From an uncultured Planctomycetaceae bacterium (GTDB lineage: Bacteria > Planctomycetota > Planctomycetia > Isosphaerales > Isosphaeraceae), in assembly GCA_963833985.1 (NCBI GenBank), contig CAWIAD010000002.1, positions 5,344,001 through 5,408,000 of the forward strand: 64,000 nt of DNA, written 5' to 3'. The translations under genes and the position numbers were made by a program. The notes beneath the pieces are model-generated. The model had not been told where the DNA came from. It saw nothing but the letters and a program-made list of their open reading frames with translations, and did not search any database. Of this stretch, positions 24,110 to 33,884 are shown in pieces. Position 1 is the first letter of the stretch; every line of letters begins with the position of its first letter.

Positions 24110-24189
24110 CAGTTGATTGGCAGTCGCACCGGCAGGGTCATGCGGATAGGGACATGCTGCCGGCGAGCCTTCCCGGTTTCCCAAAAGCC

Positions 24190-24388
24190 CTCTTCCTGGC
24201 ACACGTTTCCTTTCGCCTCATGCCTTCTCTCTCTTGATCCAGAAATTGGCACGATCGGAATCGTACCCCACGAGGGGAGCGCGGACGGCCCCTCTTCCTG
24301 GCACACGATTCCATTCGTGTCGGGATAAACTCACGGTCAACGAGAAACAGGATCGTCTCAAGATCTTGAGGCATCAAGGAGACACGAT
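24190..24388. repeat. Cluster of GACACGAT palindromic repeats; the last copy is split by the intron
   Basis: Copies at ~24249 and ~24299; half copy GACACGAT at 24381-24388 whose other half is at 28398-28416. Confidence 0.85.
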
Positions 24389-24495
24389 GTAGAGTCGAGG
24401 TGTGGCGCGGTGGGCTCGAGTCGATGGCTCGGCTGGGCCTCGTTTCCACACCCCGCTCATCAAACTGGACGGGCGGTTTTCCCGCATCCAGCTTT
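24389..24495 (-). ncRNA. Group II intron domains V-VI
   Basis: AAAGCTGGATGCGGGAAAACCGCCCGTCCAGTTT (AGC triad hairpin), then GATGAGCGGGGTGTGG...CCACACCTCGACTCTAC. Confidence 0.9.
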
Positions 24496-24552
24496 CGGAC
24501 AAGGCTTGTCTCATCGGTTGAGTTCACACGTTCGCTCACGAAACCATCGCGG

Positions 24553-25152
24553 CTAGGTTCGTTGCAGCTGGTAAAGATGCAACTCCTGGTGCAGGTATCT
24601 GTCAGGGTAGCGTCTGAGCCCCTGACCCGGCACCTTGAACTTCGCACACAACCACTGACGTACCCGGTAGCGGACGTGGTGGTTGACTTGGCGATAGGCT
24701 GGGCTCACCGTTCCGATGCGAAAATAGTTGGACCAACCGCGTAACTTGCGATTGATCCGACCAATCTGCATCTCGACGTCCTGTCCAGTGGTCTGGCGCG
24801 TCGTCATCGCACTGATCTCGCTGCACAGCCGAATGATCTTCTTCCGCGATGGGCGTGACCCTATGTAGGATCGGCCCGTTCGTCGGTCGTAGTTCCGGCC
24901 GAGGGTATAACCCAGAAAGTCGAACGTCTCCTCAGGCAGGTGGCACAGCCGCGTCTTGGTCTCGTTCACCGTTAACTTCAGCCTGGACATCATCTTCCGC
25001 ATCACCGTCATGGCCTCTTCGGCCGTGCCGCGACAGCAGATGACGAAGTCGTCCGCATAGTTGACGATTCGCGCGACCAGACGCCGCTCGTGTCCACCAG
25101 TCTTCCATCCCTTCACAAATCGTCGCATGTAGATGTTGGACAACAATGGTGA
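24553..25152 (-). pseudogene. ltrA: Group II intron RT/maturase, 3' half (interrupted)
   Basis: SPLLSNIY, VNYADDFV, FDFLGY and INRKLRGWSNYF; no endonuclease domain. Confidence 0.9.
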
Positions 25153-26806
25153 GATCACGCCCCCAACAATGTTGCGAACTACGTTGTTGGGGGCCTTTCT
25201 CAAAAGGGGACGGACTGACCCGATACACGATGCGGACCTCCTGCTCGTCGATCTCGACCTTCTTCACCAAGGCCCGAACCACCTCCCGTCGCGTGGCCCA
25301 GTCCGGCTCTTGCAACCCTTGCGAGACGCGACGTGCGAACTCCTCCAACTGACCGATCACCAGTCGCAATTCCGCCTCTTGGGCGGCCTCGCCGATTCGT
25401 TGTCGATGCTCCTCCGCCAATCTCGAGAGGCGCGTCCTTGCCGCCGAGATCCGGGGCTCGAACTCCGATTTGTCGAGCAACCCGTCGCCGTAAGCATCGA
25501 TTAATCGAGAAATCATCTTTTTCACATTATTTATCAATTTGCCGAGATGCTCCACCTCCTGATTCGGCCCGCCCTGGGCACCCTGCAGCCGCCGCTCGTA
25601 CTCCTCCCGGACCCGCTCCGGCTCGGACAGGAGACCTCGTAAGTCCTCCCAGACGGCAGCGTCAAGGATATCGGTGCGGATCTGCTTGTTCCAGCAGAGG
25701 CGCTGCCCGCCGAAACGATAGGCGTCAGAGCCCGTGCAACGGTAGTACGCGTAGCGGACCCTACCCTTGCCCTCGAACGCGGCTCGGCTCGTCGGCTTGC
25801 CGTAGCAGCCGTAGCCGCAGCGCTTGCAGACGACCAGGCCCTGGAGCAGATATCGGCCACCGCCGGGCCGGTCGCGACGGCGTTGCCGGTTCTCTTCAAG
25901 CTGGGCCTGGACAGCCAGGAAGAGGTCTTCGCTCACCAGCCCGGGGACTTCAATGAAGATTTGATCTTCCGAGGATGTATCAACCCGTGAGACCGGTCGC
26001 CGGGAGTGTTCGGGGCGGCCTCGCTGCGGGCGGAGGCGTTGAGGTTTGAACTCACCTGAGCGCGTCTTGCCGAAGGCCGCGGTCCCCTTGTAGGCAGGGT
26101 TCTTGAGGATCAACCAGACCGTCGCGCAATCCCAGGCCGATTTCCCGGTCCGCGTCGGGATACTGTCGCGCCGGAGGCGTCGGCACACCTCGCCGATCGA
26201 GCACCGTTCCTGACCCACCCATTCGAAGATCTTCCGCACGACCCGGGACTCTTCAGCGAGGACCTGATAACGCGCCTCGCCACCTCCCTCGTGCTTGCCG
26301 ATGTAACGGTAGCCGTACGGCGCGCCGCTGAGGACGTTGACCGAACCGCGGCGGGCGGCGTGTTGCTTGCCCCTGCGGCAACGCTCCATGATCTTGGCGC
26401 GCTCGTATTCCGCGATCATTCCCTGGACCTGAAGCAGCAGGTCGGCTTCCGGACTGCGGCCGACGGGGTTGCGCAAGAAGACGACCTCGACACCGCACCG
26501 GATAAGTTCCTCAAGGATCAAGACCTGATAGGCATACTTGCGTGAAAGTCGATCCGGATCGAGCATATAGAGGCGGTCGATGGCTCCAGCGGCGGCTTGG
26601 TCCCGAAGTCGCTCGAGTGCCGGTCGGGCCAGGATGTAACCGCTGACGCCGTCGTCCACGAAGTGCAGTTCGGGCTCGCATTCCAAGCCATCAGTGGCGA
26701 TCCGCTGAGTGACCGCCTCGAGCTGGCTGGCGATCGTGTCCTCCTTCTCCTGCTGCTCCCCCGAAACCCGGGCGTAGAGCGCCACGCGGAGATTGTCCGT
26801 GATCAT
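24932..26806 (-). CDS. Large serine recombinase (resolvase + recombinase + Zn-ribbon + coiled coil)
   Basis: ALYARVS catalytic motif, DDGVSG, DRLSR, APYGY, LKNPAYKG, CKRC...YYRC. ORF reads past the element end into intron sequence. Confidence 0.95.
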   Translation of the reverse strand: MITDNLRVALYARVSGEQQEKEDTIASQLEAVTQRIATDGLECEPELHFVDDGVSGYILARPALERLRDQAAAGAIDRLYMLDPDRLSRKYAYQVLILEELIRCGVEVVFLRNPVGRSPEADLLLQVQGMIAEYERAKIMERCRRGKQHAARRGSVNVLSGAPYGYRYIGKHEGGGEARYQVLAEESRVVRKIFEWVGQERCSIGEVCRRLRRDSIPTRTGKSAWDCATVWLILKNPAYKGTAAFGKTRSGEFKPQRLRPQRGRPEHSRRPVSRVDTSSEDQIFIEVPGLVSEDLFLAVQAQLEENRQRRRDRPGGGRYLLQGLVVCKRCGYGCYGKPTSRAAFEGKGRVRYAYYRCTGSDAYRFGGQRLCWNKQIRTDILDAAVWEDLRGLLSEPERVREEYERRLQGAQGGPNQEVEHLGKLINNVKKMISRLIDAYGDGLLDKSEFEPRISAARTRLSRLAEEHRQRIGEAAQEAELRLVIGQLEEFARRVSQGLQEPDWATRREVVRALVKKVEIDEQEVRIVYRVSPSPFEKGPQQRSSQHCWGRDLTIVVQHLHATICEGMEDWWTRAASGRANRQLCGRLRHLLSRHGRRGHDGDAEDDVQAEVNGERDQDAAVPPA

Positions 26807-27171
26807 GGTTTGTCAAACCCCCCCGACCTTGGACTGGATAGTGTGGACCACAGTCGCGTGGTTGCGGCTGGGTCGCGGCCGATCCAGGCGCTGCGAAACG
26901 ACCGGGATCAAGACCTGATATGCACGCGCGATCAATTGCTCCTGAAGCCGAGTGAACTCGAAGTGGCGGGTGACAGGAGGACTGAACGTGGGCCTCCGTG
27001 GGGACGTGATCATGTCGACTCCTCCTCTCCGAGAGCGCGGCCGCCAGCCTGCCTTGGATCGGGATCGAGTCGGGGCTGCCATCCGTGCCCGTACTTCGGT
27101 CGAAGCCGCGATCTGGAAATGACAGAGTCAGGAATCAGGGACGATTTTGCAACATTGTTGGGGGCGTGATC
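25153..27171 (-). mobile_element. Minimal serine-recombinase integrative element (2015 bp plus duplicated GATC core)
   Basis: Perfect 23-bp inverted ends at 25153-25175 and 27149-27171, both including GATC; removal restores the RT frame. Confidence 0.92.
26813..27013 (-). CDS. 66-aa accessory ORF of the recombinase element (possible directionality factor)
   Basis: Strong RBS GGAGAGGAGGAG before ATG at 27013; ends 6 nt before the recombinase ATG. Function is inferred. Confidence 0.65.
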   Translation of the reverse strand: MITSPRRPTFSPPVTRHFEFTRLQEQLIARAYQVLIPVVSQRLDRPRPSRNHATVVHTIQSKVGGV

Positions 27172-27866
27172 GGTGCACCTTGCGGTGTACCCATCCCCTG
27201 GTCTTTATTCCGGGTCGTTCGATGGCGCTGCCCCTTCCCGTCGGTTTCTTCCACCGGTGTTTCCAGCCACATCTTGATCAGCCGCAGGACGCGACCGTCG
27301 CTGATGCGCCGTGACGCCGATTTCATTAACTCGGAATGGGGTATGCTATCGAAATATCCAGATAAGTTCGCGTCCACCACCTCGGTGTGCCCCGTCTTGA
27401 GCAGCCGTTCGACTTCGCGGACGGCGTCCAGGGCGCTGCGCTCCGGGCGGTAGGCGTGTTGTTCCGGCTCCAGGTCGGCCTCGAAGATCGGCTCCAAGAC
27501 CAGCACCGCAGCCATCTGCACCACACGATCCTTGATGCAAGGAATGCCCAGCGGCCTTTGCTTGCCGTCCCCTTTGGGGATGTACACGCGCCGCACCGCC
27601 TGGGGTTGATACGTCTCCTTACGAAGTTGTTCCGCCAGTTCGTCCAGCCATCGTTCCTTCCCGGACGCCTCGATGTCGGCGAAACTCTGGCCGTCGATCC
27701 CCGGCGCGCCGCCGTTGGCACGGCAGCGTTCGTAGGCGAATCCCAGAACGTCACGTCGATAAATCTTGTCGTACAGGACGTAGAACCGATAGTTGGGCGC
27801 GTTCTTCGCTTTGGTGTGCAACGCCGTCTGCAACTTCCCGACCTTCAGTGGAGGTGATAGACTCAC
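27168..27866 (-). pseudogene. ltrA: Group II intron RT/maturase, 5' half (interrupted)
   Basis: LYDKIYR, GAPGIDG, RRVYIPK, RPLGIP..DRVVQ, YFDSIPH and GTPQGAPI, then the insertion. Confidence 0.92.
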
Positions 27867-28426
27867 GCCAATCTCCCGGCTGTCTGCCGCTTGTTGCGTT
27901 GACCTTGAACCAAGGCCCCTTCCCTCGACCGGAGTTACCCGGCGTCGACGGTACTACGGGCCTCTCCGCCACCCCAGGCAGCCCGGCCGGTCCCTCGCGG
28001 GCGTCCGGTTGAGGGTCACGCGCCCTCACCGCTTGGGGTTTCCCGTGTTGTGTTGATCTCCGTGTGCCGACATGCCGTCGTCAATACCCCGGTGGCCCGC
28101 TGGGTTCTGATCGCTCGTGGGGCGGCCTATTCCAACCGTTTCCCTTTCATCCCCAGCGACGGCGGCCTTCCCCATATTCCAGCAAGGTCGGCGACCACAT
28201 TGGACTTTTCGAGGCCTGCTCAACGTTCACTCGCGTTACGGCCTGTCGGTTCGCTGCATCGCCAAGCGACACATCTGTCTCGAAGGCTCCGACGGTTTCG
28301 TCTCCTCCACCGCCGCTCCGATAGCTACCGGCTGGAGCGACCCAGTTGCCGGGTGGGAGTTACACCCACTGAAGACCAACACCTTTCCACGGCGCACCGG
28401 AATCGTGTCCCACGAGGGAAAAACCC

Positions 28427-29450: not shown

Positions 29451-29470
29451 GGTCTGGTCCGCTCCCTCCC

Positions 29471-29540
29471 ATCTGATCTGACCCGATCTGATCTGATCTG
29501 ATCTGATCTGATCTGATCTGATCTGATCTGATCTGATCCG
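29471..29540. repeat. Pentanucleotide microsatellite (ATCTG)x14, 10 consecutive perfect units
   Basis: Read directly from the sequence; contains 12 GATC sites. Confidence 0.95.
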
Positions 29541-29567
29541 CTCCGCTGCCGTTGCCAGGCCGCTCGC

Positions 29568-32783: not shown

Positions 32784-33884
32784 CTAGTGTCCTGAGTTAG
32801 AAGTTCGCTCACAAACACTCGTCACTCGATCTAAGATCATATCAGCATCTGCCGTCCATACGAAAGGCTTGGGATTTACGTTGTGTTTTGCCAGGAATTC
32901 ATGGATCGCCTGTTCCAACGCCGCCACGCTCCGGAATACTCCACGGCGAATTCGCTTCTCGGTAATCTCCGCGAAGAATCGTTCAACCTGGTTCAGCCAA
33001 GAGCCGCTGGTGGGAGTGAAATGCAGATGATACTCGGGATGGCGAGCGAACCACCGCTTCACGGCTGGAGCTTTGTGTGTGCCGTAGTTGTCCATGACGA
33101 GGTGAATCTCGACGCCTGGTGCTTTGGCGATCTGGCTATCGATCTCGTTGAGGAATTTGAGGAATTCTTGTTGTCGATGGCGACGGTAGCATTTGCCAAT
33201 CACACGACCTGTCGCGACGTCCAAGGCGGCGAACAGCGAAGTCGTCCCATTGCGTACATAATCCGGAGTTCGCCTCTCCGCCTGGCCAGGCCCCATGGGA
33301 AGCAACGGCTGGGTACGGTCCAACGCTTGCACCTGGCTCTTCTCGTCGATGCTCAAGACGATAGCGCGCTCCGGCGGGCTCATATACAACCCGACGATGT
33401 CGCGGACCTTCTCGATGAAAAAGGGGTCCGTGGAAAGCTTGAACGTCTCGCTGCGGTGAGGCTTCAACTCGAACGCTCGCCAGATACGCGAGATCGCTGT
33501 CTGAGACAAGCCGACGGCTTCCGCCATGCCCCGAGTGCTCCAATGCGTGGCGGCCTTGGGTTTCTCCTCCAGAGTCTTGGTCACAACGGCCTCGACCATT
33601 GCGTCCGTGATTTTGCAGGGCGCCCCCGGCCTTGGCTCGTCGGACAGGCCGTCGAGACGATCGAGGAGGAAACGTTTCCGCCATTTCCCGACCGTCACGA
33701 CATTCACCCGGAGCTGTGCGGCGACTTCCTGATTATCGAAACCTTGAGCGCAAGCCAAGATGATCCGCGAACGGAGGGCGAGACGCTGGCTGGTCTTGGG
33801 CCGGCGCGACCACGCTTCGAGTTTCTGGCGCTCGACATCATTCAAAGTGAGAGTAGCCTTGGGGCGACCACCTTTATTCATCAT
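32784..33884 (-). CDS. IS630 transposase
   Basis: [15 protein letters not shown] and [13 protein letters not shown] motifs; stop codon is formed at the target TA. Confidence 0.95.

Follow-up and report, generated by a model that had tools for sequence, protein, structure and literature searches.

A group II intron-targeting element whose serine recombinase gene may be completed only in the excised circle

We analyzed a 64,000-nt stretch of DNA from an uncultured Planctomycetaceae bacterium (GCA_963833985.1, contig CAWIAD010000002.1, positions 5,344,001-5,408,000, forward strand), hereafter the window, in which a group II intron is interrupted by a 2-kb mobile element encoding a large serine recombinase (LSR). 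Rfam matches to the group II intron lie at 28231-28371 and 24414-24496. The element, bounded by 26-nt inverted ends, splits the reverse transcriptase (RT) gene of the intron, and excising it in silico with a script restores an uninterrupted RT frame of 432 amino acids (aa). It holds two open reading frames (ORFs), the LSR and a small ORF, and we saw no conjugation, mobilisation or cargo genes. An earlier note on this DNA had claimed that the LSR has no stop codon inside its own element, and a script confirms it: 551 internal codons and 73 borrowed ones make up the 624 aa of the integrated form. The remaining figures of that note, a circle of 2015 bp, a circle-form LSR of 603 aa and a small ORF of 66 aa, were all reproduced, and in the window element the TGA of the circle form (27012-27010) does overlap the ATG of the small ORF (27013-27011). 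The code for about 30 conserved aa sits at the end of the element opposite to the recombinase gene. As the LSR lacks a stop at one end and this conserved module lies in frame at the other, only the excised circle would give rise to a complete enzyme. Feature coordinates are given in Table 1.

Table 1. Features of the element and its host intron (window positions)
Feature	Position	Strand	Remarks
Host group II intron	24389..28397	-	1994 nt once the element is subtracted
Intron RT gene, 5' part	27169..27866	-	Ends at GTPQGAP motif
Intron RT/maturase gene, 3' part	24553..25153	-	Begins at SPLL
Mobile element body	25156..27168	-	2013 bp; 2015 bp counting one 2-bp core; two ORFs and circle-only tail
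Upstream crossover dinucleotide AT	27169..27170	-	Symmetric
Downstream crossover dinucleotide AT	25154..25155	-	Positions 2-3 of LSR codon 551
Upstream attP arm	27145..27168	-	24 nt, 22/24 identical to the other arm; doubles as circle-only tail codons 1-8
Downstream attP arm	25156..25179	-	Codes for conserved LSR end QHCWGR
LSR, part within element	25154..26806	-	551 codons, stop-less
Borrowed LSR tail of the integrated window copy	24932..25153	-	73 codons; alternative frame of intron RT; not conserved
Circle-only LSR tail, conserved core	27073..27168	-	About 32 codons, without a start codon of its own
Circle-only LSR tail, remainder	27010..27072	-	Weakly conserved; with TGA overlapping small-ORF ATG
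Shine-Dalgarno sequence of small ORF	27019..27026	-	AGGAGG
Small ORF	26813..27013	-	66 aa; conserved in the family

In the circle, the attachment site (attP) forms an almost perfect palindrome around a symmetric core. The earlier note had placed the join at GATC. We find instead that the true core is the dinucleotide AT: an off-target copy in the same genome (C1:1743790) has the junctions C-AT...AT-G, and relatives share only a dinucleotide, which excludes GATC both as a 4-bp core and as a target duplication. The junctions of the 11 full copies in this genome and of 59 relatives place the crossover at a 2-bp core, with no duplication of the target. Since AT is symmetric, insertion can occur in both orientations; in Bxb1, according to passages of PMC3642061, polarity is determined solely by the central dinucleotide. 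The 11 copies are 99.9% identical; besides them the genome contains a partial copy that has diverged, what is probably a twelfth copy, located at a contig break, and two introns with no element. The 624-aa form stands for the seven copies in RT orientation, though not as the sole form: the LSR measures 598 aa in the two inverted copies and 573 aa in one further copy, and is frameshifted in another, these last two being the copies that sit outside introns.

The read-through extends well beyond this genome. A scan of GTDB genomes returned at least 548 related stretches, from which 79 loci were retained; the 59 with both ends resolved, together with the window element, form the set of 60 elements analyzed here. 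These span Planctomycetota, Pseudomonadota, Chloroflexota and Acidobacteriota. The 20 loci left out had cut contigs, damaged ends or odd lengths, and the tail motif described below lies upstream of the LSR in 12 of them and is absent in 8. Over its final 30 codons within the element, the LSR frame is stop-free in 60/60, which bears out the proposal that attP lies within the recombinase gene and that excision and integration swap its C-terminus. Among the 56 elements whose frame reaches a stop, flank-derived LSR tails run from 1 to 373 codons, some copies stopping 1-8 codons past the core. The database tells the same story: of 120 homologues listed, 116 carry the arm motif, and these show 108 different 12-aa tails. 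The native tail appears in one of the 120 (P0027). Judged from these sequences, the tail of the integrated form is random flank-derived sequence, or junk.

Flanks were usable for 58 elements. When joined, those of 38 rebuild the PQG motif of an RT with the core at an identical offset, that is, at one codon; 18 of these insertions are in the same orientation as the RT gene and 20 are inverted. The flanks of the other 20 elements have no match to the PQG motif. Left and right cores differ in 22/60 elements, 14 of which have AT on one side, a difference that points to integration despite a mismatched core. The TnpX/TndX transposons are known to tolerate unlike cores. Some targets are not RTs at all: a clade of three elements (L054, L055, L056) targets a motif resembling GIFPNE..I.RL.GA.L, presumably of an IS256-family transposase, and two others (L014 and L041) share a different non-RT target. 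One member (L081) lies on the catabolic plasmid pWW53 (3501-8005) between benA and xylS, where it carries the tail motif and adjoins more recombinase ORFs.

In the LSR frame, the tail reads NNVAK..[LI][ED]F...I.R..LRP.YG.GF.GAP, and its Arg, Tyr-Gly and Gly-Ala-Pro are invariant across phyla. Over nt 25-84 from the left end, stops are found in 0/60 elements in this frame, compared to 52/60 and 35/60 in the other plus frames and 18/60, 38/60 and 21/60 in the minus frames. All 26 lineage representatives, with L027 standing for the L026/L027 pair, are open in the tail frame, against 10.6 expected. The pooled ratio of nonsynonymous to synonymous differences (pN/pS) over nt 25-96 is 0.43 in 11 planctomycete-clade elements, 0.53 in 6 beta/gamma elements and 0.67 in 13 mixed ones, and it lies between 0.97 and 1.71 in the other plus frames. 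Variation is highest at third codon positions. Gaps ahead of the LRP motif, in an alignment blind to frame, measure 9, 6 and 3 nt; those near the ragged end of the alignment have lengths not divisible by three. A profile from which the planctomycete-clade tails had been left out, searched against the six-frame translation of this genome, retrieved exactly the 11 element ends at E ~1e-7, with the next match at 0.067. The earlier note had cautioned that a 52-codon open stretch can arise by chance, and rightly, as shuffles of this one sequence give P = 0.21; the significance of the tail comes from the comparison across relatives. Collectively, these data make it very probable that the tail truly belongs to the protein and is under selection as part of it.

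The tail motif occurs in 367 protein clusters, and among the 150 of these listed none is a full LSR, nearly all having unrelated N-termini read in from outside. It resembles no known domain with confidence: one of 42 members matched Pfam at E 0.0098, none of the 42 matched PHROGs, PDB sequences and NCBIfam gave no match, and the best match in the Atlas scored 0.79. The sole match in one similarity search was P0027 itself. The tail shows no similarity to the small ORF, and where MAFFT aligned distant tails to an internal RLRP stretch of the LSR we handled the result as an alignment artefact. Many non-planctomycete elements have a -10-like hexamer (TAGAAT, TAAAAT or TAGACT) that overlaps tail codons at inner nt 29-46, corresponding to window 27123-27140. 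Lying beside the LSR binding site, it is a possible promoter, and it accounts for a conserved stop in another frame. The leader of the window element has no promoter match.

Joined forms of the gene do occur. One metagenome contig of 2114 bp has a 123-bp terminal repeat and is thus a 1991-bp circle of a distant relative (L080); its LSR frame reads through the junction into the tail, with a frameshift elsewhere in its LSR. P0027 is a 472-aa database protein, from a 1509-bp contig, in which the LSR is continuous with the tail, and a second joined protein, P0004, resembles it with one extra residue. The two could derive from circles or from tandems. A search with the junction pattern gave one match in metagenome contigs and none in viral contigs, and a similar pattern was found in none of 301 genomes of the phylum. 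In four soil runs that we searched, the joint of the empty site, a skip of 2015, appeared in two.

The predicted LSR has the domains of a canonical serine integrase: Resolvase (8-155), Recombinase (185-306) and zinc ribbon (320-390), with an inserted coiled coil and a final hairpin. PF00239, PF07508 and PF13408 all exceed the Pfam cut-off, and its profile matches the SPbeta integrase across positions 134-514. Membership of the IS607 family was rejected (25.9 bits against a model cut-off of 110), and DUF4368 is not among the Pfam matches at E 0.1. The AlphaFold model of P0027 is confident through the last zinc-domain hairpin. As this hairpin falls inside the element, no canonical domain is lost from the integrated enzyme, the tail being an extra part. 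The small ORF is likewise conserved (V...FEP.RL....L..AY..L.P), has no match in Pfam, NCBIfam, PDB or the Atlas, and may be a candidate excision helper. In five elements (L036, L058, L059, L068 and L080), a run of some nine A follows its start codon, which is not in the frame of the conserved body, a pattern that points to expression through slippage.

We propose, with a probability of about 0.6, that the circle makes the full, integration-competent enzyme and that insertion takes the module away and leaves behind a weaker, rarely excising one. In the integrated state, the gene would yield an enzyme with the canonical domains and a random flank tail, likely of low activity, for which the Mx8 integrase discussed below is a precedent. 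Probably aided by the small ORF, this enzyme would now and then excise the element. The ends would then join and translation would run on into the conserved module, and the resulting full-length form would likely capture a new RT target, in either orientation and with a mismatched core tolerated. Insertion would split the module off again and so would damp more jumping. That the tail favours integration, or raises activity, we likewise take to be rather probable. Several findings weigh against this model. Among 15 of the 27 joints in the four soil runs, none is the circle joint of the window element. The lineages are kin, so the significance of 26/26 open frames is overstated, and an earlier, coarser test found a 30-codon open frame in only 6/9 clusters, where 2.5 would be expected (P = 0.012). 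In one element (L026), tail codon 8, just ahead of nt 25-84, is a nonsense codon. The tail is under weaker selection than the catalytic domain (pN/pS 0.20), and this selection declines past codon 32, with pN/pS of 0.70, 0.70 and 0.96 for nt 97-141. Finally, in the P0027 model the tail has a predicted local distance difference test score (pLDDT) below 50 save for a short strand at 435-443, and contact with the core is not seen.

The conservation of the tail would suit any function of the circle form, and the module could instead act as a brake or guard on the circle, blocking re-excision or recombination between two copies of attP, or repressing the operon, with no boost to integration. The palindromic attP with its symmetric core and the full domain set kept by the integrated form also speak for this reading. 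We nevertheless consider a brake unlikely, as 11 recent copies at 99.9% identity bespeak efficient spread and the sole tested precedent, Mx8, has the more active circle form (passages of PMC4701971). A second alternative is that the switch concerns protein stability, with flank tails serving as degrons and the native tail being merely a stable end. The randomness and wide range of integrated tails, and the mostly disordered prediction for the native one, would accord with this. However, a clean end would be obtained more simply with a stop codon, some integrated copies do stop within 8 codons of the core, and a stable end would hardly call for a specific 30-residue motif with residues invariant across phyla; we regard this explanation as quite improbable.

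The version put forward in the earlier note, in which the switch lies in translational coupling of the circle-form LSR to the small ORF, we hold to be no better placed and quite doubtful. That note had taken the ATGA overlap as the stronger sign. When homologues are circularised in silico, as it had proposed, the read-through is conserved (the stop-free nt 25-84 above) but the coupling is not: the overlap is present in 31/60 elements, adjacent in 3/60 and absent in 26/60, and the strong sign is instead the conserved circle-only tail. On the tree, the overlap is found in 22/22 members of the planctomycete clade, in 8/8 of a Pseudomonas/Burkholderiaceae clade and in L028. Its retention within these clades speaks for coupling, yet occurrence in three lineages is, by a rough estimate, about what frame (1 in 3) times an A after the ATG would give, and so restricted a spread rules out coupling as a rule for the family. 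A strong Shine-Dalgarno sequence of its own also serves the small ORF. In 15 of the 26 uncoupled elements the frame reads on into the small ORF, and in 11 it stops 19-136 nt ahead. For the long read-throughs of L054-L056, fusion of the LSR to the small ORF on the circle was ruled out, the small ORF being in another frame. Least probable is that constraint on the DNA or RNA (a promoter, accessory binding sites or a non-coding guide RNA) preserves the left end, with the open frame a by-product, or that the tail is a separate small gene: the -10-like hexamer at nt 29-35 of many non-planctomycete elements and the low pN/pS (0.52-0.78) of the antisense frame sharing third positions speak for the former, but the codon-position pattern, indels in multiples of three, stops in 21/60 in that same antisense frame, the lack of a consensus RNA structure in 16 leaders and of a promoter match in the window leader speak against it, and no conserved in-frame start codon was found among the elements for a separate gene.

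Within the genome, the copies differ at one intron position. At window 25138, the 15th base after the downstream GATC, the intron has C in 7/7 same-orientation copies and A in both inverted copies and both empty introns. This single-nucleotide polymorphism (SNP) suggests that intron and element move as a unit by retrohoming with the RT supplied in trans, or else a polishing artefact. Neither an element SNP nor other SNPs of the intron follow this pattern. Elsewhere in the genome (C2:2147541-2148825), a 411-codon transposase-like ORF, which we take to be ISAs1-like, lies inside the 3' half of an intron already holding an inverted element, a triple nesting. At every one of its sites, the intron has inserted into a short repeated motif that resembles GGGACACGATTCC 5' of the intron and ATCGTGTC 3' of it, and related repeats adjoin the window copy at 24188-24317, 24380-24388 and 28398-28415. 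The window further contains a run of ATCTG pentamers between two genes (29461-29550) and, 5 kb from the intron, a transposase ORF (32784-33884) that is presumably IS630-like.

An attachment site inside an integrase gene is known in principle, and the comparisons made here draw on passages of the papers cited. In the Myxococcus phage Mx8, attP lies inside the integrase gene, and integration replaces the native 112-residue C-terminus by 13 residues, upon which activity drops (cited in PMC4701971). Mx8, however, has a prophage tyrosine integrase with one fixed replacement tail, whereas we describe a serine recombinase on a 2-kb element with random tails, many sites and two orientations. In the streptococcal integrative and conjugative elements (ICEs) in rumA, attR lies inside the serine integrase gene (PMC4701971). 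These are large, conjugative and directed at one chromosomal target; our element has no conjugation module and targets another mobile element. The passages on the rumA ICEs report no test of tail conservation or tail activity, whereas the tail here is under selection.

The closest transposons are the clostridial Tn4451/TnpX and Tn5397/TndX, which likewise have one LSR and very short end repeats and use the same enzyme to excise and integrate (PMC5704250); a circular intermediate is named in a title cited there. They differ in carrying mobilisation or conjugation functions and resistance genes, in needing no recombination directionality factor (RDF) and in not targeting intron RTs, and an attachment site inside the recombinase gene does not appear in the passages of PMC5704250. 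The Bxb1, SPbeta and LI/A118 integrases share the domain set and a central dinucleotide that sets polarity (PMC3642061, PMC11722253, PMC3783163). RDFs, which are small proteins, attach to the zinc domain and redirect the coiled coil (PMC11722253). In those phage systems the core is asymmetric, the gene is unchanged by integration and direction comes from the separate RDF, whereas the present family has unlike left and right cores in over a third of its members, as counted above, and an enzyme whose C-terminus changes. Relaxed, degenerate target motifs and many sites are shared with the multi-targeting LSRs (Durrant et al., 10.1101/2021.11.05.467528), 63% of whose clade has DUF4368, a domain we did not find in this LSR. 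The main text of that preprint contains neither 'intron' nor 'reverse transcriptase', though its supplements may list such targets. The passages of PMC8496243 and PMC5861418 hold nothing on the family beyond the split SSV integrase gene. We found no description in print of this family, nor of a minimal intron-targeting family with selection on a circle-only module, in a search that left most subscription journals and ISfinder outside.

More tentatively, and at odds we would put below even, the module may be an integration factor covalently joined to the enzyme, an RDF in mirror image, in a widespread minimal family that controls its direction through cutting its own gene and joining it again, lives as a parasite of group II introns at their most conserved RT codon and rides on intron retrohoming. 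The direction of serine integrases is usually credited to a separate RDF. In this family, the gene alters together with the state of the element. The part that changes is short, defined and conserved. It lends itself to deletion or exchange, and a 2-kb system thus allows a direct test of the idea raised for the rumA ICEs and Mx8. As database entries almost all end in junk C-termini, integrase screens that use annotated sequences would test the wrong form. For the host introns, the family is a parasite, and by disrupting RT genes it may limit intron spread.

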